Counted from the stretch's first letter, positions 3,705-33,163 are shown. The stretch is DNA of 64,000 nucleotides from Cyanophora paradoxa CCMP329 (GCA_004431415.1 QPMI01000200.1:124001-188000), one strand, 5' to 3'. The notes: generated by a model not told the origin, from the sequence alone. Translations and numbers: made by a program.

Positions 3705-3739
3705 ATGATCAGTGATCATGATCATCATGAGCACTACAC

Positions 3740-7588: not shown

Positions 7589-7969
7589 CTCGCTCAGTCA
7601 AACGCACGAGAGCTGGAGCAGCTCTTCCAGTTGGCGGCGGCGACGCTTCGCGCCCGCTTTCGTGCGGCGGGGTCCGTCCTCTACAACGCGCACGGCGGTG
7701 ACGAGATCTTCAACAAGATGACGCCGCTGGACTTGTGCTTCTCTCCGGGAACGCGGGCTTTCTACCTTCGCTTCGCTCCGCACGAGCTTCGCAGCCCCGT
7801 CCCGTGCCCGGCCCCCTACACGCCGAGCGCACGCGGGGGACGGCCGATCAAGCACACTCACTCGTACCATGTCGTCGTCATTTACCCGTGCCTGCTTCAT
7901 GACGCCCAGGGCGCCATCGTGGGCACCTGCTGGGAGCTGATTTCTGGTTGCGGCATCTGCGGCGCCTTC
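7589..7969 (+). pseudogene. Upstream fragment of the retroelement ORF (127 codons) between the two foldback copies
   Basis: GC3-rich coding-like frame LAQSNARELEQLFQ...CGICGAF. Joins in frame to SSLMTSGRG at 17408 when 7970-17407 is removed. Confidence 0.75.
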
Positions 7970-10900
7970 CCGGGTACCCCGGCACTTTTGGCTCACCCAC
8001 GCATTGCGTCGAAATTTGAGTCATTTTTCGACGCAGTGCTCCGAAATTTCACGCAATGCTTGAAAATGCGTCGGGGTTTCAAGCAGCGCTTGAAACCCCA
8101 CGCAGTGCGACGCAGCTGCCCGAAACTTCGAAGCACCGCGACTGCGCCAAATTCCCACTGCGTCTGGCTGCGTCGAGCGATGCAGCCTCAGGGCCTGGCA
8201 GCGCTAGCAGGCGCTATAGCTAGTACTAGTAGCTCGTAACCCATGCGGATTGCGGATTCAATGATTGCAGCGCGCGCGCTCGGGATCCACTGGGGCAGAT
8301 CCGAGTGCGCGGGCGGATTGCAGCGCGCGCGCGGCTGTACCAGTACCGCAGTACTAGTATATACGTACGTGCATGCTTAGTTTGCTCGCGCTTCTGGGCC
8401 GCTGGGCCGCGGCCGGGCCACAGCGGCGACAGGCCCGTGGCCAGCTATTGTGAATCTGTGGCATGCGCTGTTCATAAAAGATGATGAACTGGAAGTATAC
8501 AGGCTGTCCGGGATCCGAAATCTATCACACGCACCAGCCCCTGAAGCCCGAATCCGAGCGCTAGCTAGTTGCCGAGAAAACGAAAACTAACTGCAATCAG
8601 CTGCCGAACAGCGGGAAGTGCTGCTGTCCTGCCTGCAGCATCGTCCGCCGGCGGCACAGGCAGAATGCGCCCTCGCCGCACTCGCTGCGGCAAGTCACCG
8701 CGCTCGCTGCGCTCAGAATAAGCGGACTCCTAGCTTAAAGAGAGAAGTGGGAAGCAAGGGACGTCTGCGCACCGAGGAGAGGGTAGCAGTCCCGCTTCCT
8801 CCGCATCCAGCATCCCTTGCCCGTGCCCGACGTCGAAGGCAGAGCGCTCGCTGCGCACGGAGAGGAATGTCAATCTAATGAAAAGAGAATGCGCGCCGAT
8901 TAACAGACCGCACCTGCGGCCGAGCGCCCACACCATGGACTGGAAGAGCGCCTCCTCTGGCCAAAAGGGCGGAGGCGTTGATGGCGCTCGCCGCGCTGCG
9001 GCATCACGGTCAGCGCGCGGATCGAACGAAGATAAGCGAGTGGTGACCGGCAAACGGACCGCTGTGCACCACAGCAGGGTGAGTGAGCAGCAGGCCGGCT
9101 CGCGCCGCGTCCGGGCCGGTCCGGCATCCCTCGACCGCGATGCCGAAGCTGCGTTCGGAGCGTCAACCGAAAGAAGAGAAGAATGCGCGCCGGCAAACGA
9201 CCGCACCTGCCGCACCTGCGCCCCAGCGGCCGCAAGCACAAGAACTCCGAGGCCGCGGCCGTCCAGAAGCCACGCGTCCGAGAACGGCACCCGCTCCGCT
9301 GCGCACGCGGCCGGCGTCACAAAAACATCAACGCGAGAGTAGCGGAAACAAGAGCGAGCACCTGGCCTGCGGGAGAAGACGCTAGGCGAACTGGATGGTG
9401 GTGCTCTGCTCGCGCGGGCCAGTCACCCCGTTCCCTGGACCGCCAGCGGAATGAGGGATTGGGGCAAAGGAGATGAAACGAAAAAGCACCTTGCTTCGCA
9501 TCGGCAGCCGCCTTCTCCTTTTTGCGCGAGCCGACCAAAAGAAGGAACACTTGGCGGCGGCGGCCGGGCTAAGAATGCAGATCAAGGGCGCTTGAAGAGG
9601 CAAGAACGACGCGTACACGAGCGCTCTTCGCCACGAGCGGGCGCCCGCCGCCCTGGGCAGCGCTCTGCTTTTGAAATCAGGCCGGCGACAGGCGGGGGAC
9701 GCGAGAGGATGCAAGTAGGCACCTTCGAACGTCGTTCGCGCTCGAGGCTCGTCAAGTTCGCGGCAGCTGTGCGGACTCCGTTTGACCTGTTTGAAATTGT
9801 GGAGTAAGGGAGACCAGGATGCGCTGCGGTGGAGAGCCCAGCGCCGACGCACCGAGATTGCATTGCGTCCCGTGCTGGAGGCCGCAGCCAGTTCTTGCCC
9901 TGCGTGCTCTTCAAAGTGCAAGGCCGGAATTCGGGGTACACAGCTGTTGGGCGAAAGCGGCAGCGACACCAACAGCGATATCGATCGAGGATGCTTGAGG
10001 TTGCCCTTCGGCTCAGCTTTCCGAGGAAGCCTGAGCGGTCCCATGCTCCTTCGCAGCTCGCTCGGCCGCGGTGCCGAGCACGTTGGCGGAAGCTCGCAGA
10101 TGCGGCGCGCGGCCCTTTCGTTAGCTATAGCTAGGCGCATGTGGCCCGTGTTCTCGCAGCTGCATGTCTATGCCCTGGCGTGGCCGTGTTTCCGTGCGGC
10201 GCCGCGTTCACGGCCTGCCTTCCTCCCACAAACCGACGACGTGCGTCTATGCCGTGCCCTCCGCGTTCCACGCGTGACGTACAGCTCACTCGATTTCGCA
10301 GGGATCGCCGGCGGTGAGCCCCGTCGGCCCAGTTGGTTGGCCCTGCGCCCAAGCCGAGCCAAGGTGCGGCGGCCGCCTGGCCGGGAACGGGGGACAGGCG
10401 AACTGCCGCACGCTTCTCGCTGTTGATCTCTCCTTCGTAGCGGGCGATGGAGTGCCGGCACGCCGCTGGCGGCGAGCGCGCCCTGCCGAGCGCGTCGCCA
10501 TCGCCGGGGGTGGGCCACCGGACCATAGCTTTGCGTCAGCGGCGCGCGAACGCATGTCTCACGATTCTTGCTTGCGTTCCAGGCGCTGGATCGCGCGCGC
10601 CGTCTCCAGGCTCCGAATTCTGGACCCCTCTTCCACAGCTTGGTGAGGCTCAGGCCTAGACGAGGTGAGTTGAGCGGTCTGTGTGCGTACGCGTCGCTGA
10701 CAAGGCGCTCCTGTCGCGCAGGATGATCGAGTCCCGGGGCGATGGTCGGAGGGAGCGGAGGGCGGCAGCATGGATTGCACGGCGGGGCGTAGGATCGGCG
10801 GGCGGCGGCCCGGGGCGCACGCCTCGCGCGCCGCCGGCTGCCCGCCCGCCCCGGCCCGCCCGGCGCCGTCGCTTCGCCCGCCCCGGCGCCTTCGCCCCGC

Positions 10901-13900
10901 TCCGCCCCGTCGCTTTCGCCCCGCCCCGCAGAGTCGGTGCGCCGTGCTGAGCGCCCTGCCCGGCACAGCCCGGCCTGCCTGCTGCTGACGCCCTCGCAGC
11001 TCTCGAGGATTTTGAATTTTCGGGGCGTCCCGCTGCCGCGGGAGAGGATCTTCGAGCGCCCCGCCGCCCCCGCCGTCCTCAGGGACAGCGCCGGGGGTCG
11101 CGGAAGCTCAGCAGGCGGCGGCGCGGCTCACCTGGCGGGGCGGAGGCGCGGCGGGCGGCGGCACGGCTCGCCGGGAGGGCGGCGGCGCGGCGGGCGGCGC
11201 GCAGCTCGCCGGGCGGGGCGAGGGTGCGGCGGGCGGCGGCGAAGCTCGGCGGGCGGGGCGCGGGAGCGGCGGGCGGCGGCGCGGCTCGCCAGGCGGGGCG
11301 GAGGCGCGGCGGGCGGCGCCGCGGCTCGCGGGGCGGGGCGGAGGCGCAGCGTGCTGCGGCCCGGCTCGCCGCACGGGTGGAGGCGCGGCTGGCGGCGGCG
11401 CGGCTCGCCAGGGGGGCGGAGGCGCAGCAGGCGGACAGGACGGCAGGCGCGGCGGGCGGCGGCGTGGCTCGCGGGGCGCCGCGGTGGCGCGACGCGGCTT
11501 CGATTCGTGATCACTGATCATGAGCGTGATGATCTCTTGTCATTCAATTTAAACAGATCCGAGGCTGCGCTGCCCTGCAACTTGGCACAAATGAAGTGTT
11601 GGCAATTGGGGCCCACTATTGCTTGGCGAGGCACCAGCACCTTTTCAGCGCTTGCCACTATTAAAATCAAATCTAGCGCCTTTGATATAGTCCAGGTACG
11701 CTTCTCCAGTCAGTGAAAAGGCCGGGATCTTTTCCTGGCTTCATGATCAATTCTCATGATCATCATGAACACTGCATGCATGGGTGCTCAGATCCTCACT
11801 GCGAGCCAAATTGAAACTCGGGGCCCATATTGCATACGCCCGCGAGCATGCTGTTGGGGGTTCTCGAGGGCGCTGGATTTGATTATGAAGTCGGTTGAAG
11901 ACAGATCCGAGGCTGCGCTGCCCTGCAACTTGGCACAAATGAAGTGTTGGCAATTGGGGCCCACTATTGCTTGGCGAGGCACCAGCACCTTTTCAGCGCT
12001 TGCCACTATTAAAATCAAATCTAGCGCCTTTGATATAGTCCAGGTACGCTTCTCCAGTCAGTGAAAAGGCCGGGATCTTTTCCTGGCTTCATGATCAATT
12101 CTCATGATCATCATGAACACTGCATGCATGGGTGCTCAGATCCTCACTGCGAGCCAAATTGAAACTCGGGGCCCATATTGCATACGCCCGCGAGCATGCT
12201 GTTGGGGGTTCTCGAGGGCGCTGGATTTGATTATGAAGTTGGTTTAAGACAGATCCGAGGCTGCGCTGCCCTGCAACTTGGCACAAATGAAGTGTTGGCA
12301 ATTGGGGCCCACTATTGCTTGGCGAGGCACCAGCACCTTTTCAGCGCTTGCCACTATCAAAATCAAATCTAGCGCCTTTGATATAGTCCAGGTACGCTTC
12401 TCCAGTCAGTGAAAAGGCCGGGATCTTTTCCTGGCTTCATGATCAATTCTCATGATCATCATGAACACTGCATGCATGGGTGCTCAGATCCTCACTGCGA
12501 GCCAAATTGAAACTCGGGGCCCATATTGCATACGCCCGCGAGCCGCTGAGCATGCTGTTGGGGGTTCTCGAGGGCGCTGGATTTGATTATGAAGTCGGTT
12601 GAAGACAGATCCGAGGCTGCGCTGCCCTGCAACTTGGCACAAATGAAGTGTTGGCAATTGGGCCCACTATTGCTTGGCGAGGCACCAGCACCTTTTCAGC
12701 GCTTGCCACTATTAAAATCAAATCTAGCGCCTTTGATATAGTCCAGGTACGCTTCTCCAGTCAGTGAAAAGGCCGGGATCTTTTCCTGGCTTCATGATCA
12801 ATTCTCATGATCATCATGAACACTGCATGCATGGGTGCTCAGATCCTCACTGCGAGCCAAATTGAAACTCGGGGCCCATATTGCATACGCCCGCGAGCAT
12901 GCTGTTGGGGGTTCTCGAGGGCGCTGGATTTGATTATGAAGTTGGTTTAAGACAGATCCGAGGCTGCGCTGCCCTGCAACTTGGCACAAATGAAGTGTTG
13001 GCAATTGGGGCCCACTATTGCTTGGCGAGGCACCAGCACCTTTTCAGCGCTTGCCACTATTAAAATCAAATCTAGCGCCTTTGATATAGTCCAGGTACGC
13101 TTCTCCAGTCAGTGAAAAGGCCGGGATCTTTTCCTGGCTTCATGATCAATTCTCAGAGTCTCATGATCATCATGAACACTGCATGCATGGGTGCTCAGAT
13201 CCTCACTGCGAGCCAAATTGAAACTCGGGGCCCACATTGCATACGCCCGCGAGCATGCTGTTGGGGGTTCTCGAGGGCGCTGGATTTGATTATGAAGTTG
13301 GTTTAAGACAGATCCGAGGCTGCGCTGCCCTGCAACTTGGCACAAATGAAGTGTTGGCAATTGGGGCCCACTATTGCTTGGCGAGGTACAAGCACCTTTT
13401 CAGCGCTTGCCACTATCAAAATCAATTCTAGCGTTTTTGATATAGCCTAGATACGCTTCTCCAGTCAGTGAAAAGGCCGGGATCTTTGCTGGGCCTCATG
13501 ATCATGATCAGTGATCATGATCATCATGAGCACTACACCGCCTGGCGACCCGCGCCACCGCCCGCCGCGCCTCCGCTCCGCCCGCGAGCCGCGCCGCCAC
13601 CCTGAGCCCCGCCCCGTCCGACGAGCCGCGTCGCCGCCCGACGCGTTTCCGCCCCGCCCCGCGAGCCGCGGCGCCGCTCGCCGCGCCCCCGCCCCGCCCG
13701 GCGACCCGCGCCGCCGCCCGCAGCGCCTCCGACCTGCCCGGCGGGCCGCGCCTCCGCCCGCCGCGCCTCCGCCCCGCCCCGCGAGCCGCGGCGCCGCCCG
13801 CCGCGCCTCCGCCCCGCCCGCGAGCCGCGCCTCCGCCCGCCACGCCTCCGCCCTGCCCGGCGAGCCGCGCCTCCGCTCGCCGCGCCTCCGCCCCGCCCCG

Positions 13901-16900
13901 CGAGCCGCGGCGCCGCCCGCCGCGCCCCCGCCCCGCCCCGCGAGCTGCGCCGCCACCCGCTGAGCCCCCGCCCTGCCCGGAAAGCCGAGTCGCTGCCCGA
14001 CGCGCCTCCGCCCGTCCGGCGAGCCGCGTCGCCGCCCGCCGAGCCTCCGTCCCGCCCCGCGAGCTGCGCCGCCGCCCCCGCGCCCCCGCCCCGCCCAGTG
14101 AGCCGCGCCGCCACCCTGCCCGGAGAGCCGCGCTCGCCGCGTCTCCCACCTGGCCGGAGGGAGCTGTGCCACCACCCGCTGTCTCGCTGAACCCGCCAGG
14201 CAAGTTAAGCGGGGGGAGAGAGGGGGGAGGGAGGGAGAGCCGTGGGCGAGGGGAGGCATACTCCGAGGGCGCTTCGGCGCGGCGGCGGCAGGGCTCTTGC
14301 GGCCGCGGGGTGCACAGGCAGCCGCGAGGGCGGGCGCGGGGCGCTTGTCGTTGTGCGGCGCGGCGGGGGCGGCGGGGCGCTCGAAGATCCTCTCCCGCGG
14401 CAGCGGGACGCCTCGAAAATTCAAAATCCTCGAGAGCTGCGAGGGCGTCAGCAGCAGGCAGGCCGGGCTGTGCCGGGCAGGGCGCTCGGCACGGCGCACC
14501 GTCTCTGCGGGCGGGGCGAAAGCGACGGGGCGGGGCGGGGCGACGGCGACGGGGCCGGGCGAAGCGACAGCGCCGGGGCGGGCCGGGGAGCCGGCGGGGC
14601 TGCACGGGGCTGCACGGGGCGTGCGCCCCGGGCCGCCGCCCGCCGATCCTACGCCCCGCCGTGCAATCCATGCTGCCGCCCTCCGCTCCCTCCGACCATC
14701 GCCCCGGGACTCGATCATCCTGCGCGACAGGAGCGCCTTGTCAGCGACGCGTACGCACACAGACCGCTCAACTCACCTCGTCTAGGCCTGAGCCTCACCA
14801 AGCTGTGGAAGAGGGGTCCAGAATTCGGAGCCTGGAGACGGCGCGCGCGATCCAGCGCCTGGAACGCAAGCAAGAATCGTGAGACATGCGTTCGCGCGCC
14901 GCTGACGCAAAGCTATGGTCCGGTGGCCCACCCCCGGCGATGGCGACGCGCTCGGCAGGGCGCGCTCGCCGCCAGCGGCGTGCCGGCACTCCATCGCCCG
15001 CTACGAAGGAGAGATCAACAGCGAGAAGCGTGCGGCAGTTCGCCTGTCCCCCGTTCCCGGCCAGGCGGCCGCCGCACCTTGGCTCGGCTTGGGCGCAGGG
15101 CCAACCAACTGGGCCGACGGGGCTCACCGCCGGCGATCCCTGCGAAATCGAGTGAGCTGTACGTCACGCGTGGAACGCGGAGGGCACGGCATAGACGCAC
15201 GTCGTCGGTTTGTGGGAGGAAGGCAGGCCGTGAACGCAGCGCCGCACGGAAACACGGCCACGCCAGGGCATAGACATGCAGCTGCGAGAACACGGGCCAC
15301 ATGCGCCTAGCTATAGCTAACGAAAGGGCCGCGCGCCGCATCTGCGAGCTTCCGCCAACGTGCTCGGCACCGCGGCCGAGCGAGCTGCGAAGGAGCATGG
15401 GACCGCTCAGGCTTCCTCGGAAAGCTGAGCCGAAGGGCGTCCTCAAGCATCCTCGATCGATATCGCTGTTGGTGTCGCTGCCGCTTTCGCCCAACAGCTG
15501 TGTACCCCGAATTCCGCGGCCTTGCACTTTGAAGAGCACGCAGGGCAAGAACTGGCTGCGGCCTCCAGCACGGGACGCAATGCAATCTCGGTGCGTCGGC
15601 GCTGGGCTCTCCACCGCAGCGCATCCTGGTCTCCCTTACTCCACAATTTCAAACAGGTCAAACGGAGTCCGCACAGCTGCCGCGAACTTGACGAGCCTCG
15701 AGCGCGAACGACGTTCGAAGGTGCCTACTTGCATCCTCTCGCGTCCCCCGCCTGTCGCCGGCCTGATTTCAAACGCAGAGCGATGCCCCAGGGCGGCGGG
15801 CGCCCGCTCGTGGCGAAGAGCGCTCGTGTACGCGTCGTTCTTGCCTCTTCAAGCGCCCTTGATCTGCATTCTTAGCCCGGCCGCCGCCGCCAAGTGTTCC
15901 TTCTTTTGGTCGGCTCGCGCAGAAAGGAGAAGGCGGCTGCCGATGCGAAGCAAGGTGCTTTTTCGTTTCATCTCCTTTGCCCCAATCCCTCATTCCGCTG
16001 GCGGTCCAGGGAACGGGGTGACTGGCCCGCGCGAGCAGAGCACCACCATCCAGTTCGCCTAGCGTCTTCTCCCGCAGGCCAGGTGCTCGCTCTTGTTTCC
16101 GCTACTCTCGCGTTGATGTTTTTGTGACGCCGGCCGCGTGCGCAGCGGAGCGGGTGCCGTTCTCGGACGCGTGGCTTCTGGACGGCCGCGGCCTCGGAGT
16201 TCTTGTGCTTGCGGCCGCTGGGGCGCAGGTGCGGCAGGTGCGGTCGTTTGCCGGCGCGCATTCTTCTCTTCTTTCGGTTGACGCTCCGAGCTCAGCGAGC
16301 GCTGCGCCGTCGCGGCGACCGCGTTCCGGGCGCTCTCAATCTCGGTGTGGGCGCTCGGCGACAGGTGCGGTCTGTTTATTGGCGCGCGTTCTCTCTTCTT
16401 TTGATTGAGATTCCTCTCCGTGCGCAGCGAGCGCTCTGCCTTCGACGTCGGGCACGGGCAAGGGATGCTGGAAGCGGGGACGGGCCTCCTGCTCTCTCCT
16501 TGCTGCGGTGCGCAGACGTCCCCTTGCTTCCCACTTCTCTCTTTATGCTAGGAGCCCGCTTATCCTGATGCGCGCAGCGCAGCGAGCGCGGCGACGTTCC
16601 GCAGCGAGTGCGGCGAGGGCGCATTCTGCCTGGGCCGGAGGCGGGCTGCTGGCGATCGGCTGGGCATGCGCAGGCGGCGGACGATGCCGCAGGCAGGACA
16701 GCAGTACTACCTGCTGTTCGGCAGCTGATTGCAGTTAAAACGTTAGTTTTCCTTTTCTCGGCAACTAGCGCGGGGGACGACGCCGCTTGCAGGTCATTGC
16801 GTATTGTGTAAAGCCCTTACAGCCTAAGTTGCAGGCGGGGCAGATTGGGGCAGATGAGCTCGAGGGCGCCCGCGCACGATCGGCCACGAGGCCGCTAGCT

Positions 16901-17399
16901 GTTTCACAGTGTGCGCACATCTACACGAGGGCGCCGCGCGGGCTCGGGATTGGCCCCCACGAGGGCGCTGAGCTGTGTGCGCATGCGCACATGTACTACG
17001 GTACGACCTAGGGGCGCCGGCGCCACGCGTACGCGTGCCCCGTCGAGCTTGACGACCGACTCTCTCTCTCGGCGAGCTCGCCGAGTCGAGCCGCGTCGAG
17101 CTCAGGCCCATAGCAACGAGCTCGACGACCGTCGACCGGTACCGGCCACGCTGCTGGCTATAGCTACGTATACGCCGGCGCAGTGCGTCGGACACTGCGT
17201 CCAGCTGCGTCGAGCGGCGCAGTGCGTCAAACTTCGAGTGCGTCGAGCGACGCAGTTTCGTGAAACTTGGCGCACTGCTTGAAACTGCGTGGAGATTTCG
17301 AGCAGTGCTTCATTTCCGACGCAATGCTTGAAATTCCCACGCAATGCTTGAAATTTCCGACGCAATGCGTGGGTGAGCCAAAAGTGCCGGGGTACCCGG
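7970..17399. mobile_element. Foldback-type non-autonomous DNA transposon, complete copy 2 (9,430 bp)
   Basis: Terminal inverted repeats CCGGGTACCCCGGCACTTTTGGCTCACCCACGCATTGCGTCG... at both ends, continuing imperfectly for about 250 bp. Flanks GCGCCTTC (7962-7969) and GCACCTTC (17400-17407) form an 8-bp TSD with 1 mismatch. Inner inverted arms at about 8565-11075 and 14361-16768. No transposase recognised. Confidence 0.85.
11553..13503. repeat. 348-bp tandem repeat array (about 5.6 units), core of foldback copy 2
   Basis: Same units and same 8-bp insertion variants as 1754-3704. Confidence 0.95.
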
Positions 17400-20300
17400 G
17401 CACCTTCTCCTCCCTGATGACCAGCGGCAGAGGAGTCGACACTGACACGGGCGCGACGTACACGGCTCGCCTCCCGCTCCAGACGACGGTGTCACGGACA
17501 GAACCGCCCTTCTGCCGCCAGGTTCCTCCGGCCATGTGCGACCTGCTTCATCGCATCTACTGCAACCTCGCCGTCTACGCCCCCCAGCTCGCTGGTCTAC
17601 GCGAGGCGGTCTTCCCTTCTCTTGCCGACGAGTACATCAACATCCCCCTCGCCGACACGTCCACGTTCGTGGTCACGGACCCGCCGCGCCCGACGAGCTG
17701 GACCAAGTCCGTCAGGCCGGGCGACGAGTACGGGCTCCTTCGCTCTGCCAGGCTGGATGCTGGGTCGCCCGCGGCCTACTCTCACATTCAGCCGGCGTAC
17801 GGAACGGACATCTCGGCTGTACCGTGGACTCAGGTGGGGCAATGCGACGTCACGGGACCGTTCACTCGAACGGATCCGGTACAGCCTCCGAACCTCGACA
17901 ATCTCCAGTGGACCTGGAATCCTCAGTCCCTCCCCGCACTGGGCACGGGCTACATGGAGGACTACCCTCCCCACGTCCTCCTTCGCGTGCTTCTGCTGAT
18001 GGCGCCGGCACACCGCGAACGAGTGTGCACGGCCTTCAAACTGTCGGAGCTGGAGGTGGAGCGGGCGATCATTCAGTTCGCCAACGATGATCCTCTCCCG
18101 TTCTTCGACGACATCGTGCCGCATGCGAACGAGCGCATCATGACGCTCATGCAGCTCACCGCCCTCCGCACGGCGGACGAGGAGACGGACCAGCGGCGGA
18201 GGAACGAGGAGTACCGCCGGCGCGCCCAGGACCGCGACGAGGAGTCGCCAAGTGACCACGACGAGCCAGCTGGAATTCGAACGCCGGCGGGCTTGGCTGC
18301 TGTCTTGTTAACCCGCCCTGCAAACGACGGCTTGGACGATGCCATCCCGGCTGCAGGCGGCTCGTGGCGCCCACCATCCGCGCGCCCGCGCGGGACGATG
18401 CCTTCGGACCAGCTGCCCACCGCACCCTCGGCCGCGCCGCCGACGGTACAGGTTGCAGTCGCAACTCCGACGCCCGCGACGCATCCCCCCACGCCCTCGG
18501 CCACGCAGCCGATGGCGCCGGCTATGACTCCAGCCCCGTCGGTGACAACGTCCGCTGTCGCACCCTCGGCCGCGATGCCGACGGCGCCGACAGTCACGAC
18601 GCCGACCGCGGGACCCTCGACCACGACGCCGACGGCCCCGGAGGAGGCTGAGGACACGGACACGTCGTTCAGCAAGGAGCTCTGCGCGCGGCTTCACATT
18701 GCACCTGATCATGACGAGCACGGCAGACTTCACCCGCCTCCCGACGTTCGCGAGATTCCCGCCCACACATTCTCCCTTGCCCCAGGCTGCGCGATCTACT
18801 GGCCAGGCGAGCAATCGTACATGCTCATGACGACGGCGCTGGACAACGCAGACCTGTACTCGGACGAGCGCCCCGTCGCGTGGTGCCCCGCCTCTTATGA
18901 CGCGGTGGGCATCGCAAACACGGGCGTGTTTCAGAACAACCTTGCACGTCGGATCGGCAGGCGCCCGCTGAACGACGATGACATGGCCCGTTTCAAGGAC
19001 GAGAAGCGCCCGATCCCGCTCACGTACAAGGTCACTCGCGAGGCGCAGGCTGCACAGTTGCTGCATCACATTCCCCGCTTCCGCTCAGCAGTCTACCTTG
19101 TCGCCTGTCTGGCCTACGACAGCACCCCGGCGGAGCTCGTGACTGTACGTGACCTGACTTCGTCGGTTCCCTTCCTCGAGTTCCTCGGCCTCAGCGCAAC
19201 CGACGCGAGCATCGCAAGCTACACGACAGACTCGGTGGCTACCGCGATCCTTTCCTCAGTGATCGACACGGCCCGGGCCTACAAGACGGCGCTGGACGCT
19301 CGCAAAGGCGAGGGGGCCACGACCTCACCGCTGCACCACCACTCCACGCTGCGCGCAGTCACGGCGCAAGGCGACACGCATGCTGTACGCATTCGACTGT
19401 TCCACCAGTCTCTTCGAGAATTGCACAGGCTCCCTCCCGCGCTGGAGGCAGAAGAAGGGCAAGTTCTCATCGATTACGTCGACTCGAAGCTACGGCACAC
19501 GGCTGCGCTGATACCTCGCGTCTCCGTCTATCTCCGGGCCAGGGCACTCGCTCAGGGCACGCTGCTGGCAAGCGTCGTCAGTGCCACAGATGACGCCTCT
19601 CTCCGCACGACCTTCTGCGAACCGCAACCGCTTCTGGTCGAGAACGATGCAATCCCGCGGACCTACATCTTCAGTGTGATCATTGAACAGTCTGAGTACA
19701 TGCTTCGGGCACTGAACCTCACGACGGATACGGCGCGGCTCACTCCGGACCTGATGTCCTGGACAACACATTTTGGCCGTCTAGTTCTTGACAGCCACCG
19801 AGGCGGCCGCCTCACGTCCTGCTTCCTACGTGACCTCGCGAAGGAATTTGAGCTCACGTACTCATCCATCGCCATCTCCATTCCGAACCCCGGTCATCGC
19901 TTTTACGTCCCGACGAACGCCGACGCGGCACTGAAGGCATGCGAGGCGGGCTTGGAGCAGCATCGCAAGGGGTCCTCGCCGACGGGCACTGCCTTCGTCA
20001 CGGAACTTAGCCCGACCGTCGCTATGGCACGCATGAACAGCATCCGTGACCAGACTGCGTACACGCACGCCATCATCAACTACGTACGCGACGCGTTTCC
20101 CAGTGAGGGGTTCGGCCAGGCCCAACCGCCTACGATGAAGCTCAAGCGCCTCCCGGCTACCGACCCGATTCCACTCAGCTACGAACCTCACAGTGAAATC
20201 CTCATCACGCGCAACGAGGCCGCACTTCTGGCAGCTTCGCAGCCTCGGGCTCGCGTGCTCGCTGTTGCGCTCCGCGTTGCGCTGGCGACGCGGTACCAGG

Positions 20301-22557: not shown

Positions 22558-24090
22558 TATCCTCCCGCATAATTTCAAAGCTTGGAGGGCGACGGCGCGG
22601 CGCCCCGTCCCCTCGCCGCACCGTCGCACCTTCGGCCGCTGAGCGCACGCGTCGCCAGCAGAGGCCGCGGCGCCAGAAGAGGCCGCGGCGCCAGAGTCCG
22701 CCCGCGGCCCGCCCCCAGCGACCGAAGCCAGCGGCTGCGGGAAGTGCCGCCCAGCGCCAGCTCGGTCTGCGCTTGAGTTGCCTGCATAAATGTGAGCCAA
22801 GGACGCGCCGCAGACCCATGAGCTGCATGGGCGGCGCACCTCACCCGGCGGGGGTTGGAGGGGATCAGCGCAAAGGTGGAGACGAACGCTATAGAGCACG
22901 ACATGCCATCGCTTTCGCCCGCTGTCATCCGCCACGCCATCGCCCCGCCTGGTAAGCCACGCGCTGGGCATGCGCACGCCCCACACCCACCACCGCCGCC
23001 GAATCGGAGGCGGCGTGCGGAAGATCCAGCGACCGGGGCTGCAATTGCACAACGTGAGCACTGCAAACGCGTACCGCCGGCCCCGAAGCGCGGCTCGGCC
23101 GGCTCGACCGGACCGATCGGTCCGAACGCGGCGGCGGAAGCGCTGAAGCTGCGATTGCTTCGTCTACATGTGCATCAGCGTGACCAGGTCGATGCTCCAC
23201 AGGTCCGAAAGCGCTGCGCGGGAAGGGGACAGCCGGTCAGCTGCAGGGTTCGGAGCGGATCAGCCCAGAAGCGGCCACGGACGCTCTGGAGCTGCACACG
23301 CATCGCTCGCATCACGCTCACGAACTGCGGGAGTCAAAACTGTGCCTCGGGGGCGCGAGCGCAGCGGTCAACGAGCCGCGCATCCCGTCGACTCGCCGTG
23401 GAGCCTCCCGACCCGTTCCTGTGCGCCGCGTGAGCCAGGAGACGGAGCAGGAGCCCTCCTAGCACGGGAAAGACGCACCGCGCGACCCCCGGGCCTTCAC
23501 AGCGGGGAGCTGCCGAGCGAGGGAGTACCGCGCTCCGCGGGGACGGAATCGGGCGCGACTCGGCGAGCTCGACGCCAAACGAGCTGCTAACGATGCGGCT
23601 GCACGCTGCTAGCGTCCGCAGATGCCGCGAGCTGCGGATCTGGCCCCCGTGGCTAGCGAGCCAGTACTGCTAGAGTTGGCAAGCGTTGGCAGGCGCCCCG
23701 GCGGCCGCTTGCGAGCGCGAAGGGAGCTAGAACGCCGCCAGGCCGTAGGCGCGTTCGGCGGAGAACCGTAGAACGTTCTACGTATACGCGTTCTACGACG
23801 GATCTAAGCTTCCACGCTCTACGTTCAAAACCATTCTAAAAGTTCAAAACAAACAAAAACCATAGAACGTTCTATAGAACGGTTCTACGTTCTAAGAAAG
23901 GTTTTGAAATTATGCGGGAGGATAGTTCGGCGGAGAACCGTAGAACGTTCTACGCGTTCTACGACGGATCTAAGCTTCCACGCTCTACGTTCAAAACCAT
24001 TCTAAAAGTTCAAAACAAACAAAAACCATAGAACGTTCTATAGAACGGTTCTACGTTCTAAGAAAGGTTTTGAAATTATGCGGGAGGATA
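22558..24090. mobile_element. Non-autonomous TIR DNA transposon, 1,533 bp, 5-bp TSD
   Basis: 22-bp TIR TATCCTCCCGCATAATTTCAAA / TTTGAAATTATGCGGGAGGATA. TSD CTGCG at 22553-22557 and 24091-24095. Removal gives in-frame YDTLR|QQLNEF. Confidence 0.9.
23753..24090. repeat. Tandem duplication of the right end, including the TIR, of the 1.5-kb element
   Basis: Units 23753-23924 (172 bp) and 23925-24090 (166 bp) differ by a 6-nt insertion. Confidence 0.9.
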
Positions 24091-26223
24091 CTGCGCCAGC
24101 AGCTGAACGAGTTCAAATCGGCACGCCTGCAGCGCTGGTGGCCGAACGCGTTCACTCTCACGGACGAGCTGCGGGAGCTATTCAAATCCGAGACGGTCAC
24201 TGCGGAGCAGGCTGAGAACCTCACGCCAACAGCAGGCTTCGTTGAAGTGGACCGCAACATTATCACGGCCCAAATCCGCGACTTCATCGACGTGATGCGC
24301 CCTCATGTCGAGAACGCCATGGCGGACGAACTTGACCCGGACACGCGTACGGACGCCTGGGACCCATTCCTCATTCGCCTCGGCGCAGTCCTCTACGAGC
24401 CGGACCTGCGACTGGAGCTGTCGAACTGGATCACACGGGTCTTTAATTGGCCGAGCTCTCCCTCGATGGAGAACTACGACTACAGCAACTCGCTGTACTA
24501 CACTTACGAGGCGATTCCCCCGCTCCGCTACTCAGACTCCCGACCCGATGATGAGGACTATCGGCGACACTTCCCGCACGTGTACTACGAGTGCTCGCCC
24601 GGTCCTGGTCGCTGGACTTCTCCATTCGATGGTCTAGCCGACGGCCACAAGGTCTTCAATCCGCTCAAGTTCGCCCTCCGCCACAACCCCGCCACTCCTT
24701 GAGTGTATGCCATCGATATCTACGAGGCGCCGTACGCGGACCGGCTCCCATCCGAGCAGCGGACGGCCGATCTCCCGGCGACGCCGACGCGGTGGTCCAT
24801 GTCCCCGAGCCTCGGGCCCGCGGACGTTGACGGCGCCCCTGCTTCGCCGCCTCTTCATCCGCGTGGCTATCGCATCCTGCGAACCCGTCGCCGCACTCTG
24901 AAGCCTGTGCGCTCGTGGGTGGAAGGCTGGAACGCTACGCGGCGCCTCTACTACGCCCACTCGATCGCCGACGCTCTGCGACAGCACACGAGCTCCACGC
25001 CCCCGGACTCGACTTCGGTGGGGTTGACGGCGACGGGTGCGGCAGCGGTCGACCCCACTGCAACAGTGACGGTCAAGATGGCAACCGTACCGGCAGCCGT
25101 CGCGCCTGACGACGAGATGTCCAACGCCGACGCAATCTGGGGTTCGGATGACGAGATGCCGACGGCGCCCACGTCTGCGACAGAGGACCCGCCTCCGCCT
25201 GACGACACTGGCGTGCCTTCCGACCGCCCCACCTCGCCTTTCCCGTGGTACTGCGGTCCTCTCCCGATCCCGCGCAACGGGCTTCTTTTCGTCGAGACCG
25301 CCGACTTCGCGTACTCTCCCTACTCGGCCCAGGGCACGCCGTACTGCTGGATCGAGTTCGCCCTGACGTCACCGGCTCACCAGACGATCATCGTGCCACG
25401 AGTGTCGCTGTTCGACGACGTGTCCTTCGCTCAGTCCTTCCACATGTACGACTGGAGCCGCCTTTCGCCCTCGCACTGCGTCAACGCTCAGTACCTGGCC
25501 CGTCTCGCTGACGAACTGCGCGACACTCCGGTCGTTCTCAACACCAGCGCGGGCTTGGCTTTGGAGCTGGCACGCTCGCAAGTCATCCTCACGCGCCTGG
25601 CGTTTGTCATGAACACGCTCGGCCGCCCGGCGTACGACGCTCTCCTGTACTCGTCGCTCGATTGCGTTCACGCTCAGCGTTCGCGTTACTACGTCGACAT
25701 CATCCTACGCGGTGACCGTGGGCTGACCCAGGCCTGGCCGATCCTCATTCAGTACCTGCGGAAAACGGCCCCGTTCTTCCGTTCGAGCTTGGCGTACGAG
25801 ACTCTGGGACCGTACATGGACCCTCGAGAGATCACGGTGGCCCAGCTGACGTTGGACCCTGGACTCGAGACGGATGAGGGTGCGGGTGGTGTCACTTTTG
25901 GGACCCTCACGACGGCGCACATCACCTCCTGCAGCAAGCGGAATGGTGCGAGGGGTATTCGCGGCGACCTCTACACCCAGGGCCTGGGCTACACGGACAC
26001 CGGCACCGACTCTGCACGACCGTCGCCCGCGACAAGCCCGTTCTTCTGGGTGGCAGCTGGACGCCTTCCGCGGACGCACCCACCGAGGCTCGCCCTCGCT
26101 GGCGCGCGCGTCAAGCGTCCCTTCACGCCGGAGTGGCTCCTCAAGCCCGCTCCCTCTTTGGTGAAGGCGATGTGCCGCAAGAAGGTGAACACGGCGAATC
26201 TCCAAGCACCTGACTTATAATTA

Positions 26224-27190
26224 CACCCGATGGCAACCGTCTTCAAGGCCACGTCCACGGTCGATCCCCCTCACTTCGCCGCCCTGCAACTCGCGACGCA
26301 CTCTCTCCTGGCGCGACCAGGCGAGCAGTTCGACCCGCACGAGGCGGACTTGTTTCCTTCTTCACCCTCAGGCCTTGCGGTTCGACTGGTCGATCCGAAG
26401 AAGGCTCTTGACAAGCGCCTCGCCGACGCAAGAATCTGCGTTCGTCTTCAAGTTGGCGCGCTCATCCCCGGCCAACGCGTAAAGTCGATGCGTACGGTTC
26501 TCGCACTGGTCGACACGGGTGCGGCAGCGGATGTCATGGACGGCAGCATCGCGGACACGTAAGGTCCCTATGTTTTTCAAATCGATTTTTTTCGCGCGGG
26601 ACCGTCCCGCGCGGGACGCGGTACCGTCCCGAATTTTGGAAATTTCCGGGACGCGGTACCGTCCCGAATTTTGGAAATTTCCGAGCTGCCGGCACCCGCC
26701 TAGCCGGGATGCGGCTAGCTCGGACGCAGGACTTCTAGACTGCTTTCAAAGTTCTAGACGCTGGACTGTCCCGTGCGGTGCGGCAGGCGTCCCGCGCGGG
26801 ACTACCCCGCCCCGCGTCCCGCGCGGGACGGTCCCGCGCGAAAAAAATCGATTTGAAAAACAATGCGAGGACAACACGATTGAGGGGCTCCAGTACTCGA
26901 ATCAGGCTCCAGTACTTCTGACGGGCTTCGGCGACAACATGAACGCGTACGCACGCGTCGCCTTCGTCACGTTCAAGATCGGCAACGTCTACATAGCCCG
27001 CAAGATCCTTGTAGTCGCCAAGGGCCTCATGGGCGACACGCCGATGCTTCTCGGTCTCTCAACGCTGACGGCTCTTCGGGCGAGCATCAGTCTGGACACG
27101 GCCAACTCGGGCATGACGATTCTGCCGCCAGGCGATCACACTGCGACGCCGTACTTCGTCCCTTTTACGCAACGGGCCAGCCCGACGGGG
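26224..27190 (+). pseudogene. Retropepsin aspartic protease, split by a MITE
   Basis: LALVDTGAAADVM (DTG at 26512-26520). The C-terminal half VLLTGFG...PMLLGLSTL resumes at about 26864. Confidence 0.8.
26563..26862. mobile_element. MITE (about 300 bp), possibly PIF/Harbinger(Tourist)-like, right end truncated
   Basis: Perfect 51-bp inverted repeat at 26571-26621 and 26812-26862. The left end has extra TAA|GGTCCCTA. Internal 35-bp tandem duplication at about 26612-26681. The superfamily call is an inference. Confidence 0.8.
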
Positions 27191-30185
27191 GCACGCTGGT
27201 CCGTCTTGCGCAAACGGTTACGTTGCCCCCTGGCGAGGCCCTGGTACGATGCCACGTCCCCACGTATGATAAGACGGCGAGTGCGCACGCGCCTCACATG
27301 GAGGTCTCACCGCCGCCGGTCTTCATCTCGGAAACCGGAGATGATCACACTGACGAAGTCGACTTTCTTACACCTTATCAACTCCATCTCAACCCTCACC
27401 GACGAACTTGCCTCGTGGCGGTCCGGAACCCTCACCGCACAGACGTCCGCTTGAAAGCGGGCACCATTGTCGGCGAGGCGGCGTACGGTGACTGGCTGGA
27501 GAGCGAGTACGACCCGCATCCCGACGTCTCGCAGTACCCGCAGGGACGGTACAAGAACTGGAGTCCAGAAGCCCAGCAGACGTTTCCGATCAGGCGTGTC
27601 GTCCAGCAGATCTTCGAGACGGCTCGCCCCGTCACCTTGCTGCGAAGTTGCCAGCCGCGACGATTTGCCTCCGTGGCACGCGCCAAGTACCCGGAAGCCT
27701 TCAGCCATGGCAACAACCCTCAGCCCCAACCACATCTCGATCGCTCACGCCCCGCCACCGAACGGGATCGGGAAGACGCAGCGTCGTTCGTCGAGTCGCT
27801 CCTCGCCTATGACGCGTTCATACGCGACCGCAACTTCATGACCGACGACTACACAGACGAGGAGGTCGAAAGACTGATCGATTTCTTCCTCCCGTACTTC
27901 ACCGACCCCCAACGGTTCCGTGGGAGCTTCCGTGAGACTCTCCTACGAATCCGCATCGGACAAGCGTCGATGGCTGATGCAAACGCCATGGATCCCCCCT
28001 CCACGTTGATGGCGGGTCCTGCGGCAATGACAGAAGCTGAAATCGACGCTATGGTCGACGGGTTCTGCAAATCCTCTGAGGCCGACCCCGACATTACATC
28101 GGACCAACGCTTGACGTTCCGGAACCTTGTGCGCGAACAAGCCCGATGCTTCGCAAAAGTCCTTGATCCTCGTGACCTCCTCAAGTACACGAACTCGATT
28201 CGTCTACTGCCAGGTGTCAACCCCAAGCGGCTGCCCCTCTACACAGTCCCTCGGCGGCTCTCTCCCCCGGCGGAGAAGGCGGCCAAGGCGACCATCGAAC
28301 AGCTGCTCAAGGACGGCCTCATCGAGCCCTCACAGGCTGGATATGGCAGTCCCGTGGTGCTGGCGCCCAAGAAGGACGGCACGATGCGCTTCTGTGTCGA
28401 CTACCGACGGCTCAACAACTTGATCGAAGGCGATGTCTTCCCTCTTCCCCGCATCGATGATCAACTTGAACGTTTGCAAGGCTCCTCCATCTTCAGCGTT
28501 GGCGACTGCCTGAGCGGATTCTGGCAACTCGGCCTCGAAGAAGCCTCTCGGGACTACACCACCTTTCTCCTGCCATGGGGAGCCTGGAAATGGGTGTGCA
28601 CCCCCTTCGGTCTCAAGTCTGCTCCGTCAGCATTCTGCCGGGCGGTCAGTTCAGTACTCGGGGACCTTCTCTCCACGTGTGTTGTGGCCTACGTCGACGA
28701 CTTGACTCTGCACTCGCCGACGGTGGCTCAGCACCTCATCGATCTCGAGGCCTTCTTCGCGGCGCTCGCTCGGGGCAACCTCAAATTGAAACCGAGCAAG
28801 TGTCACTTCATGGTCCGCGAGATCGACCTTCTCGGTCACCGTGTCAGCGCTCAAGGCGTCCGCATGGACACGAAGAAGGTGGAGGTGATCTCCAAGATTA
28901 CTGAACGAGAACTGCAGACCGTCGAGCACATGCGCAGCTTCCTCGGCATGACGGGCTTCTACAGGCGCTTCATCCGCAACTACACGCGACGCGAGCTTCC
29001 GCTCCGTGACCTGATTCACGCAGCGAAGCTAGCGGACACGACGCAGCTTCAGTGGACGCCAGAAGCCAGCGAGGCACTCGCAGACCTCAAGAAGGTCATG
29101 TGCGACGACATCGTGCTCATGCTCCCCGACTTTTCCAAGCCGTTCATCATCTACACGGATTGGAGCTTGCGAGCAATGGGCGCGGCGCTCATGCAGACCG
29201 ACTCTGACGGTCGAGAACGACCAATCGCCTTCATCAGTCGAACCCTGACGGCCACGGAGGCGAGGTACAGCTCCCCGACGGAAGGCGAATGCATCGCGGT
29301 CATGTGGGCCGTCAAGACGTGGCGACACTACTTCGACTGCGGGCACCCGTTTACCATCCGCACGGACCACTCGCCTCTGCAGTGGTTGAAGTCGCAAGAA
29401 CTCCTGGCGAACAAGGCGCTTTCACGCGCGGCGCTCGTCATGCAAGGCTTCAACTACACGATCGAGTACAGGCCGGGCTCGACCAACGTCGTCGCCGACT
29501 TCGAGTCGCGCATGGCTCGTACGCATCCGATCTACGAGCCTGGAGCGGCGGACGGATCGGACCTCACTACCGACCTGCCCAACGGGGCTCACGGACACTC
29601 GGTACCCCGCAGCGGCGATCCCGACGACCCGACGGAGATCTACGGCACGCTCGTCCCCGTGACGACCGAGCCTACGACATCTATCGCGGCCGCTGGCCTC
29701 GACGGACGTGCATGGGCACCACCAGCACCTGGAACAAAGCGACGCCAACCAGTGACATTGGCCGAGCCTTGTAGCTCGCCCAACTCGCCACCACAGCGCG
29801 CCCGCCGCGATCCAGAGGAGCAGGTGACAGAAGACGCCGAGGACGTGACTTCGGAAGTGGATCCCGCGGAGTTCTCCGACGCTGACGACGACGAACTCTC
29901 GTCTGAGGAACAGCGGAGCTCGCCCTCGCGCGCCGAGGCCGATCTCCCTGGACGGACGGGACTTCACTCTGAGGAACAGCGGAGCTCGCCCGCGCACGGC
30001 AACACCACGCGCGACGGGACTCGCGACTCAGGAGATCGAGGGAGGGGGAGGGGTACACTGCGCGGGCGACCTCGTGGACGACCACGTGGACGACCTCGCC
30101 TGCACCACCCCAGAAACCGCCCTTCGGCAACCGAGCCTCGCAAGCCGGTGCTGCCTGACGCGGATCCGATCGGGAACCTTCTCCC
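27190..30185 (+). pseudogene. Reverse transcriptase and RNase H of the Gypsy-type pol
   Basis: RT motifs RFCVDYRRLN, LPRIDD, PFGLKSAP and YVDD (28690). RNase H motifs IYTDWS, RPIAFISR, RTDHSPL and VVADFESR. Confidence 0.95.
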
Positions 30186-30734
30186 CACTGCGGTACGCGT
30201 TTGTATGGGCCCATAGTGTTTGAAGAAAGCTCCAACGGAGGTTTAACAATGGCTAAATGGTAAGTAAAAGTTACATACTCGCAGTTTTTTTCGATAAGGT
30301 TCTGGACTTGACTTTGCGCCGTACCCCCCCGTTTTGCCTTAGGTTCTGGAAAAAGCGCCGATCTTGCTCGCTCAAAATTGGACCGATTGGGAGCAAATTG
30401 GAGCAGATCGTAGACTAGCCGCTAGATAGATCGTAGCCGCCGCGGCGGGCGAAAGTCTACCGCAGTTAAAAAGATCCTACCAGCCGAATGTTTTACTGGC
30501 CGTTTGAGCAAAAAACTTTTTGAAAGTCGCCCGGTACCCCGGCGTTTTTTGGAACGTGACTCAAGGGCCGACAGAATCCGCAAGCTTAATTCAATGGCTA
30601 GTAAAAGCTCTACATGCTTGCATTCGAGCGTCATAGCAGCATGCAATCCATGGCTATGGCGATCGTAGAGCTAGCGGTCGCGATCGTGGAGTTGCTTCCA
30701 GGACTATGGGCCCATACAACGCCGTACCGCAGTG
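30186..30734. mobile_element. Non-autonomous CACTA/CMC-type (CACTG) element, 549 bp
   Basis: Ends CACTGCGGTAC...GTACCGCAGTG with about 50-bp imperfect TIRs. 3-bp TSD CCC at 30183-30185 and 30735-30737. Removal restores the frame GNLLPPPQLPGG. Confidence 0.9.
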
Positions 30735-30737
30735 CCC

Positions 30738-33163
30738 ACCTCCACAACTCCCCGGCGGCATTCAGCATGAGATCGAGAACTACTGGCGGCAGGAGGCACA
30801 ACGCCATCTTGACGGACGCCAACACGAACTCGCCTTGCCGGAGCCCGACGGCGAGGCTGACCCGCCGCTCTCGCCGAACAGCTCGGCTGGGGAACCGATG
30901 GACGTGACGGACGGAGAACCCGCTCAGGCGACTCCTCCCACGCCCTCAGCAACACCTGCCTATATATGCGGGGCAGCAGGGCAGCAAGCAGCCTCGACGC
31001 AGGGCGGAGGATCGCCATCGAGCCGCGAAGCAGGCCCAACACCGTTTGCTCAAGCAACAAGCGCAACAACGACACGAGGAGAATGTGCGCAACAACGCAG
31101 ATCCTGACGGAGCCGAGGCGCGTCCTCGCCTCTCGAAGGAACAGCGTAAGCAGCGCCGTGACACTCGTCGTCAAGAACTCGAGGCACAAGCGCCACGCCC
31201 CCCGAACCTTATCCTCACGCGAGGTGCAAGGTCTCGCAAGGGTCGGTACGCCATCGCGCCTCCCAACGTGATGGACGTACTCGACGAGGCTCTCCTCCCG
31301 ACACCGACCCCACCCGAGACGTTGGGCAACGAACGCGAACTTCCACCTGCGGAGCCGTTTACGACAGACGGCGTCGCTCCGTTGGATGACCGTACTGGCG
31401 GGCGCAACGCTCCGAAGCCGGTCTACTTACCGCCAGAGACCACTGTTGCCGATTGCTGGATGCAGGGGCCTCAGCCGCTGGTTGAAGTCCCTGTACCACC
31501 TGCTCTCCAGCCTCTGACGGTTGACGGAGCCTCCATGGTGGAAGATCAGAAGACAGATCCACTCTGTCAGATGATCATCGCGTTCAAGCTGCGGAAGGAG
31601 AACCTTGCTCGTTGCTACGGCCACACCCACAGCGCTGACGCCCTGAGCCGTGACCCCGACGTCTACAAGACCTGCTTCGCCTGCGGACAGGCGCGGGAAC
31701 GCTTTGCGAAGGAGGTGGGACGCTACTGCCTCTCTCGCTCCGGCGTGGTCCTCCGCGCTCCCCTCTTCCCAACGATGGGCTCGCCGGTGGTAGTGCCCCA
31801 GCGCTGGAGAGCTGCAGTGATGGAAGCGTATCACGATGACTGGGCTCACCGAGGCGCGTCCATCGTCGCCCGGCGCATCGCGGCTCGCTTCTGGTGGCCC
31901 GGCATGACGAACATGGTGCACCGCTACGTTCGTACCTGTCATCACTGCCAGTTGGCGAAGGCCAAGCACCGGCCTCGAGTGCAACACATGATCATCGAAT
32001 CGCGGCACCCCGGTGACCTGCGCCAAGCTGATCTCTGCCCGATGCCCCACGCCAAAGATGCCCCTCACCGCTTCACGCAAGTGCTGATTGACATCGACGC
32101 GTACACCAAGTATCCGGAGATCATCATGCTCACGGAAGCTGACGGTACGGCCATGGAGTGGGCTGCGCAGAGCATTCAGTCCTCGAACGGCACGCCCAAA
32201 CGTTACCTCACTGACAACGGCACGGTGTTCAAGCCGAACACGCCCTGGGGCAAGTTCTGGACCAAGCAGGGCGTGCGGCTCATCTACACTGGTGTCTCTC
32301 ATCAGTCGACCAACGGCGGTGCCGAACGACTTGTCGGGGTGTACAAGCGGCTTATCTTCGCGCTCTGCGCCGAAGACAAGCGTGACAACGTTTACTGGCC
32401 GTACTACCACTACCGTGTGCTCTTCGCGTTGCGCACTACGATCCACGCGGCAACCGGCTTCTCTCCGGCTACGCTTCACCATGGACGCGAGCTGGTGCTG
32501 CCTGGGGACCTCCGCTTGGATCTTGTTCAGCGTGAACCCTTCGGCGAGCCTTACACGTACGCGGAGTACGCGCTGGCTGTCGCGCGGGCGGCTTCAAGTG
32601 TCGCCGAGGCGGTCAAGGCCCATCGGAAGATGTACAATCACAAGCTCCTTCGCTACGGCACCGGCAACGAACCTCGTCAGATTTTCGTGCCGGGTGACAA
32701 GGTGCTTTGCTGGAGCGAGAGCGCGAAGGCGACCAACGTCATGAAGCACGGTACTCGTAACGGCTGGACCGGTCCGTACGTGGTCGTGGAGGTCTTCTCT
32801 CGCGGCTACCTCTACACCGTATGCGGCGACCCGTCGTCTCGAATGCATCGTTCGACGTACGTTGTGGTGCACGTCGACAACATCATTCCGTACTACGACC
32901 GCCCCGATAACTTTGCCGAGGATCCGAAGCCTGGCCGGCCTCGACGGCGCGCCCCTGAACCTGTTCCCCCGCCTCCGGTGCATCTGGACGCGGATGGTGA
33001 TCAGCCAATGGAGGATCCGCCGATCCTGCACGACGACGAGCCTCACTCGGAGGACCGCCCGGCCGAGGAGGACAGTGCACGTGACGACGACTCCGTGGAG
33101 TCCGAGCAAGAAGAGAGCGTACAGCTCCATGTTGTAGGCTGGCCGAAGCACGACTTCGCCTAG
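30738..33163 (+). pseudogene. Spacer plus DDE integrase of the Gypsy-type pol (frameshift near 30961-30967)
   Basis: HHCC finger YHDDWAHRG...CHHCQ; catalytic QADL, LTDNG and GGAER; TGFSP; GPY/F motif WTGPY. No chromodomain seen. Confidence 0.92.

Follow-up and report, generated by a model that had tools for sequence, protein, structure and literature searches.

The window analysed here is a 64,000-nucleotide stretch of Cyanophora paradoxa CCMP329 (GCA_004431415.1 QPMI01000200.1:124001-188000), and its positions 7589..33163 hold one copy of a giant retroelement. Together with a part lying further upstream, this region probably represents a multi-copy Ty3/Gypsy-type retrotransposon in which a first open reading frame (ORF1) encodes a Gag-like region, an orphan block (hereafter cargo) and the protease (PR), while a second (ORF2) encodes reverse transcriptase (RT), RNase H (RH) and integrase (IN) and is likely reached by -1 ribosomal frameshifting. 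The cargo would be produced one-to-one with Gag and would likely be released by the protease as a particle-associated accessory protein. We observed the order of the domains, a frame open from the first cargo piece of the window to the protease in sister copies, a change of frame common to these copies, a slippery heptamer, and conservation of the block among paralogous families. ORF1 comprises approximately 4,380 residues and ORF2 approximately 1,800, the predicted fusion has approximately 6,200 and the element is at least 19.7 kb long. The window's own copy is dead, with five insertions, two stops and one frameshift; gene models of the same family (family A) were found on 8 other named contigs.

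An initial annotation, made from the sequence of the window alone, had proposed a giant element of the Ty3/Gypsy type that leaves over half of its coding capacity unassigned and may belong to an undescribed lineage, and the PR-RT-RH-IN order, as in Ty3/Gypsy, and the best match to Ty3 agree with it. Its single frame of about 4,600 codons has to be replaced, given the conserved frame change after the protease and the predicted size of about 6,200 residues. We found no literature description of Gypsy families from Cyanophora or other glaucophytes, and supplements, Repbase, Dfam and GyDB may hold a consensus; the lineage is apparently undescribed. The sister copies used below are EukProt gene models of Cyanophora paradoxa, probably from one assembly, and therefore paralogous copies rather than independent samples. 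In addition, half or more of the sequence words in 17400-22557 were present in 19 sequencing runs of one organism, one of which may be the window's own source; contigs were compared in 4 runs (including X8 and X9).

The orphan block and the Gag-like region

The cargo spans approximately 3,600 residues between the nucleocapsid knuckles and the protease, and in the window it is read in pieces on the + strand, as are all coding features below. Piece a (7589..7973) is Cys/His-rich and begins at residue 1,626 of the sister model P0136; piece b (17396..22557) has 1,719 codons with no stop and no match in Pfam, PHROGs or NCBIfam; pieces c-e (24091..26511) include TGA 24700 and TAA 26218, both lesions of this copy. 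The upstream region had been described as in frame with the protease apart from these two stops, and the sister models read through both. The count of about 2,650 codons before the catalytic DTG and about 1,900 after it likewise stands, the DTG being residue 2,655 of the window reading, in which each break is marked by an X. Contigs show an even depth across cargo and protease, the GC content of third codon positions is 0.73-0.81 in the cargo versus 0.74-0.76 in RT/IN, and GC by codon position is alike.

The conserved core of the cargo (19667..24585, interrupted by the second insertion; approximately residues 885-2012 in the window reading) is 25% identical to P0010 over 1,083 columns and 22-25% identical to family B. 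The best-conserved domain (25303..25980), with the pattern YDWS...LNA...FTR.AF..N..G, shows 27-39% identity among families A, B and D and is predicted, with low confidence, to be helical. P0010, a family D model of 1,706 residues, is colinear with the cargo and reaches 32-34% in this second domain, where colinear identities lie in the range 32-39%. In family B, whose RT is 75% alike, homologous pieces of the core and the YDWS domain stand before its own protease.

Beyond this alga, the cargo has no detected relatives. A HMMER search with 1,200 cargo residues against 1.84 billion cluster representatives returned 4 matches, all from Cyanophora, and all proteins matching the orphan region are Cyanophora paradoxa gene models or a model identical to the window. 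Nothing was found in Pfam, PHROGs or NCBIfam, nor with two cargo profiles in the sequences of solved structures; pattern scans with the YDWS alignment confirmed none of 25 viral and none of 385 metagenome stretches, and a homologue search confined to proteins of 2,987-5,000 residues also gave none, which is weak evidence. The window reading lacks Walker A and HExxH motifs as well as a ubiquitin tail, and it has one hydrophobic stretch at most. An AlphaFold prediction of the YDWS domain from a shallow alignment had a mean predicted local distance difference test score (pLDDT) of 34.5. The idea that the YDWS domain is a capsid was dropped, considering a profile probability below 1% and the position of the knuckles far upstream.

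Upstream of position 7589, the sister models P0015, P0016 and P0136 run on by up to 1,625 residues; the first two were the 2 of 491 candidates returned by a search for longer proteins with the piece 7592-7972. The furthest extension is given by P0136 (a cluster member of 3,081 residues), whose residue 1,626 corresponds to window position 7592 and whose N-terminal region is predicted to be helical; it further contains a Cys/His motif, two CCHC knuckles (at 648 and 667) and a stretch rich in RGG. PF00098 was found above its cut-off in P0015, P0136 and the family B model P0151, in each case before the protease and outside the window. Family B has the same knuckles, and its Gag region is homologous to that of family A (25%, E 6e-11). 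From the knuckles to piece a, the three models agree, except for short gaps in P0015, and the continuity of this part is that of predicted gene models. A Cys/His motif, C..C...H....C..H.Y, precedes both knuckles in A and B (P0136 570-610; P0151 465-495) and might be an extra zinc finger. The AlphaFold prediction of the Gag of P0151, again from a shallow alignment, had a pLDDT of 35.5; Foldseek searches with the predicted models gave no match at E 0.001, and the best result of a wider structure search (Z 7.0, root-mean-square deviation 3.4, 87 aligned) was a generic helical bundle.

The start of ORF1 and its upstream 1,625 codons, with Gag and the CCHC knuckles, lie outside the window because positions 1-7588 are a copy of a 9.4-kb element inserted in ORF1. 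The initial annotation had correctly placed the start outside, while overlooking that 1-7588 is a second copy of this insertion. It had also reported no CCHC knuckle or capsid motif; for the knuckles, this is accurate inside the window but not for the element, as P0015 and P0136 carry two of them upstream. It had further offered a huge Gag-position protein or fused cargo domains: fused cargo is retained, and a huge knuckle-less Gag is not, since sister copies have a Gag-like region with two CCHC motifs a further 950-1,600 residues upstream. Intact copies lacking the upstream region, the outcome it had named as contrary, were not encountered; the region is kept in frame with the protease.

We infer frameshifting, stoichiometry, cleavage and packaging as follows. 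The full-length RNA would be translated into Gag-cargo-protease, and a fraction of ribosomes would slip at 27160, adding RT-RH-IN; cargo and protease would then equal Gag in abundance. The low-complexity Pro/Ser/Thr/Ala stretches between ordered blocks are plausible cleavage linkers, and the orphan block would likely be excised by the protease and become a particle-associated accessory protein. Given that the cargo would be as abundant as Gag, we prefer a non-enzymatic, particle-associated role over a catalytic one and tentatively predict a scaffold or host-binding cargo carried with the particle, ahead of a counter-silencing factor and of a captured shell. The strongest competing explanation, which we regard as possible and yet rather unlikely, is that the cargo consists of free accessory factors directed against host silencing or protein turnover, whose fusion to Gag would serve expression alone, as has been suggested for the planarian element Burro. 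Such factors would agree with the differences in cargo between families A/B/D, C and H, and repeats are methylated in this alga, according to the portion of PMC12344493 available to us; they are less easily reconciled with 3,600 residues that include no recognizable host-derived domain, nor with a scan of 24 sequences that found no LRGG ubiquitin tail.

The ORF1-ORF2 junction, ORF2 and the long terminal repeat

The aspartic protease (26440..27161, catalytic DTG at 26512-26520) is interrupted by a miniature inverted-repeat transposable element (MITE) and ends the useful part of ORF1, with the zero-frame stop at 27452-27454; PF13975 was detected in the sister model P0005 with E 4e-5, below the curated cut-off. 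At its end, on the + strand, lies the slippery heptamer C_CCU_UUU (27160..27166), in the frame of ORF1; canonical in-frame heptamers number 2 in 2,851 codons. The one at 27160 is followed 7 bases downstream by a predicted H-type pseudoknot (27174..27230, + strand), in which stem 1 pairs 27174-27181 with 27195-27202 (8-10 pairs are possible) and its loop pairs 7 bases with 27224-27230 to form stem 2 (GGGGGCA with UGCCCCC). The pseudoknot pattern occurs at 39 of 12,914 coding positions (0.3%) and is absent after the other heptamer. The features expected of a -1 signal, namely an in-frame X_XXY_YYZ heptamer, a spacer of 5-9 bases and a downstream pseudoknot, are thus all found, as a sequence pattern only.

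The change of frame near 27187 had been taken for a lesion, which it is not: sister copies share it, and contigs of at least 2 of the 4 runs (X8 and X9) cover 26874-27711 without a gap, differing in two letters. All three family A models that include the protease keep the window's zero frame past V-P-F up to a predicted junction, located elsewhere in each. Among the six family B models with protease, four run on in the zero frame after V-P-F and the other two exit the protease earlier; family C has I-P-F at the equivalent place, and P0168 ends approximately 30 residues later. P0017 and P0142 begin at the first Met of the -1 frame. No Pfam match was found in the 130 residues after the slippery site. 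With these data, it is quite likely that ORF1 and ORF2 are joined by -1 ribosomal frameshifting. Counting against it, the plain fold is unremarkable (stem 1 is found, z -0.93) and the predicted pseudoknot has no covariation support.

Splicing of a short post-protease intron, as in Ogre, could also give access to RT-RH-IN, and six GT-AG pairs of 23-146 bases would bridge the frames; the Ogre intron separating GAG-PROT from RT-RH-INT was shown by experiment (PMC6317226, of which a part was available). We consider this unlikely, in view of frames that overlap with no stop-filled gap between them, a canonical heptamer and a two-stem predicted pseudoknot exactly at the junction, and three family A gene models that pick three different junctions, none of them short.

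In the -1 frame, ORF2 (27163..33163, + strand) has approximately 1,815 codons without the insertion and encodes about 400 residues, RT (28366-28845), RH (29053-29451), a low-complexity spacer and IN (HHCC at 31793-31963). Its best match among solved structures was the Ty3 Gag-Pol (PDB 7q5b, E 4e-78), followed by the caulimovirus-type 8r0s (2e-37) and foamy virus (1e-26). The models P0002, P0017 and P0146 contain a single RH stretch and no additional archaeal-type RNase H, and no chromodomain match was detected after IN in P0003, P0017 and P0146. The spacer between RH and IN (29500-31600) has approximately 570 low-complexity residues and is also present in P0017 and P0146.

In a quick maximum-likelihood RT-RH tree of 73 rows (the window, 22 Cyanophora models and 50 of 90 other hits, after removal of 11 short rows), a branch with an SH-aLRT (Shimodaira-Hasegawa-like approximate likelihood-ratio test) support of 100 sets the 23 algal rows apart from the others, and A is sister to B. 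The tree suggests a species-level radiation among the nearest hits rather than a formal placement, as its rows contain neither named reference lineages nor Burro.

Positions 33739..34019 (+ strand) are likely the 3' long terminal repeat (LTR), of approximately 281 bases with ends TA...C(A). Contigs of 2 runs enter this repeat at 33739 and run out of it at 34018-34019, with flanks that differ at both ends; its contigs are far more numerous than those of the interior, with a summed depth several-fold higher, a depth that is no copy number, and many of the copies are perhaps solo. The repeat starts with TA, not TG, and no clear purine tract precedes 33739. The window is GC-rich, and ordinary genes are found 3' of 34020: Alba/Rpp20, kinesin, an RNA methyltransferase and DPCD. 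Rfam had no match in 17300-34300.

Insertions and footprints in the window copy

ORF1 is broken by two copies of a 9.4-kb fold-back DNA element; like the other inserted elements below, they have no strand assigned. The first copy (1..7588) is cut at its 5' side and 99.6% identical to 9799-17396 over 7,608 bases. The second (7974..17395) is flanked by a 4-base duplication, CCGG (7970-7973 and 17396-17399), and its terminal inverted repeats begin GTACCCCGG. The element has GTAC ends and nested 1.9-kb internal inverted arms around a 348-base tandem array, and no Pfam or coding match was found in the two frames tested. The two copies are only 380 bases apart, which would fit a local hop. The site 7970-17399 is uninterrupted in all three covering sister models, which read GAFP-GTFSSLM, and the empty site also appears as a loose contig end at 17395 in at least one contig of run X8, the insertion being mostly outside the stretch compared.

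Two shorter DNA elements interrupt the coding region further downstream. The first (22558..24090; 1,533 bases) has the ends TATCC...GGATA, a 5-base duplication (CTGCG) and a doubled right end (166-base repeat); contigs skip 1,538 bases here in all four runs, and all four gene models read through. The second (30186..30734; 549 bases) has the ends CACTG...CAGTG, which we take to be CACTA-like, and a 3-base duplication (CCC); contigs of all four runs skip 552 bases, and both gene models read through. The initial annotation had delimited three insertions bounded by target-site duplications (7970-17399, 22558-24090 and 30186-30734), and the inverted ends, the duplications and the read-through in sister models bear this out. 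It had also rightly treated the MITE in the protease as a lesion: this 314-base palindrome (26560..26873), with the 5-base duplication ACACG, is skipped (319 bases) by contigs in four of four runs and absent from three of three models.

The smaller lesions are also specific to this copy. TGA 24700 is Arg in three of three sister models. TAA 26218, suspected from the start to be a footprint, lies within TTA-TAA-TTA, and its 6 bases are absent from contigs in all four runs. The frameshift near 30961, likewise listed as a lesion, is a partial footprint, TAT-ATA-T (30958..30968, + strand), that shifts the frame in this copy only; both P0017 and P0146 lack it and read from RH to IN in one frame.

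Extra stretches of 6 bases occur at 18273, 18706, 21978, 24343, 24712, 26215 and 33075; all seven listed in the coding region form a 9-mer of triplet, reverse complement and triplet (e.g. GAA-TTC-GAA or TTA-TAA-TTA) and are absent from sister contigs, and others are found at 23779, 25050 and 30961. They are likely excision footprints of a DNA transposon with 3-base duplications, adding two codons in frame. The transposon presumably resolves through hairpins. Elsewhere (window 1-17399 and 34019-64000), the 9.4-kb element contains 53 such 9-mers (null mean 9, maximum 21), many of them within the tandem array, and host DNA contains 121 (null mean 47, maximum 66), which suggests that the scars are genome-wide. 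Contigs of three of the four runs join 19728 to 28117, from the cargo to the pre-RT region, with a skip of 8,388 and 23+12 other letters; they represent a diverged, internally deleted relative.

Origin of the cargo and comparison with known elements

The cargo core was likely an independent gene before its acquisition, given that in family D it is encoded as a protein of 1,706 residues that begins at its own Met, and the model includes no protease. One Met is the common start of the family D models P0006, P0010, P0011 and P0014, and no protease is present up to the end of P0010. Together with P0007, P0012 and P0013, they make up a multi-copy, stand-alone model of the cargo core, with a coiled-coil-like tail; tig00020903_g15134, tig00000142_g8664, tig00000404_g415 and tig00020510_g9905 are gene models of this family. 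In family C, P0163 (4,924 residues; RT 52% alike in the cluster representative) has CCHC at 560 and DTG at 3,006. In family H (P0169), 1,020 residues or more precede the protease, and a long tract among them is rich in Arg and Ser. Large, unrelated expansions between knuckle and protease seem to arise readily in this clade (P0163, P0164 and P0169).

Family D also invites the explanation that an unknown virus-like element was the source of a captured shell or movement protein that became the core, providing a second structural layer and perhaps cell exit. The glaucophyte clade would then have placed, by fusion between nucleocapsid and protease, a 1,500-residue structural protein that family D still represents on its own, and would have shifted the frameshift to a point behind the protease, bringing this protein to capsid-level production: a second, non-Env (envelope) shell or exit apparatus in a polyprotein of approximately 6,200 residues, larger than that of Burro. 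Under the frameshift reading, the approximately 1,500-residue core would indeed be produced at the level of Gag, four family D models share one Met start, and Burro has Env in this very position in the part of its description drawn on here (PMC6431247). We nevertheless find such a capture improbable, both as a source of the core and as this full scenario, as the cargo matched nothing in Pfam, PHROGs or the solved-structure sequences, and the YDWS domain has no relative in viral or metagenome contigs and no clear membrane anchor was seen. A separate element or decayed sequence in frame by chance is already largely refuted and highly improbable: family D may exist on its own, the block has long Pro/Ser/Thr/Ala-rich stretches and the excess of silent changes is not significant, but the block is in frame with the protease in both A and B, whose RTs are only 75% alike, knuckles are found upstream in A, B and C, and colinear conservation extends over 1,500 residues with even contig depth from cargo to protease.

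Several observations weigh against the reading we favour, that of a Gag-cargo-protease ORF1 followed by a frameshifted ORF2. The upstream 1,625 residues come from ab initio gene models of one long-read assembly, in which an intron common to all models could hide a stop. No capsid homology was shown for the Gag-like region, which had no Pfam match and a probability below 1% in a profile comparison with 12 ordinary Gag regions. The spacer of 2,450 residues between knuckle and protease in family C has no detectable homology to the A/B/D cargo profile (best E 0.44), and the clade as a whole therefore need not share one cargo. Family D could not be linked to an RT, and no RT model adjoining it was among those listed. 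Between this copy and the contigs, 11 of 24 listed differences are silent (31% expected), which is not clearly biased to silent and is uninformative. The 5' LTR, primer site and target duplication are outside the window, and the GT-AG pairs at the junction could also bridge the two frames.

The closest precedent is Burro/GYPSM1 of planarians, and not Ogre/Tat, which the initial annotation had chosen as comparator; judged by this analogy, the layout is the same, and the finding is not categorically new. As described in the available part of PMC6431247, Burro has a Gag with knuckles, a cargo and Env-like region, and PR-RT-RH-IN in an ORF1 of 4,873-5,140 residues. Both elements have an N-terminal CCHC Gag, thousands of extra in-frame residues before the protease, and PR-RT-RH-IN, and in both the accessory parts may also be separate ORFs. 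The BIR, ankyrin, MATH, BCL2, ubiquitin-like and Env matches of Burro were not detected here: Pfam gave no match to Burro-type cargo at E up to 1 in the window pieces and up to 0.1 in P0136, nor any match to Env before the protease, and a single hydrophobic stretch was seen. In Burro, PR-RT-RH-IN are inside one ORF1, whereas here the frame is split after the protease and the total is approximately 6,200 residues. The LTR of approximately 281 bases, the few copies and the glaucophyte host also differ from what that part of the source gives for Burro.

Among other systems, the available part of PMC6317226 describes splits that separate GAG-PROT from RT-RH-INT in some plant groups, with the Ogre junction being an intron of approximately 274 bases; the separate extra ORF, the second (archaeal) RNase H and the multi-kb LTRs that it lists for Ogre/Tat were not seen here. 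The yeast Ty3 has the same Pol order and provides the best solved match of RT-RH, but it has a short Gag and a +1 shift between Gag and protease. According to the portion of PMC5009743 drawn on for this and the following, -1 shifts of the heptamer type often occur between gag and pol in animal elements. Human T-cell leukaemia virus 1 (HTLV-1) has such a shift between protease and RT, as predicted here; unlike in HTLV-1, Gag, cargo and protease share one frame here, and the protease would equal Gag.

What is new with respect to Burro is the glaucophyte clade, the orphan cargo and the predicted post-protease frameshift, the Burro-like layout itself being already known. The Cyanophora element would be a second, probably independent case of a retrotransposon with thousands of residues between Gag and protease. 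For LTR elements of its lineage, the glaucophytes, the available part of PMC6704402 gives just a share of the genome (1.77%) and describes no families. A conserved cargo with no match outside this alga in 1.8 billion cluster representatives makes such elements a source of uncharacterized folds, and the predicted post-protease frameshift leads to a sharp claim of stoichiometry, with cargo and protease as abundant as Gag. For the annotation of this alga, such elements also account for stretches of several hundred to thousands of residues in 'hypothetical' Cyanophora gene models.

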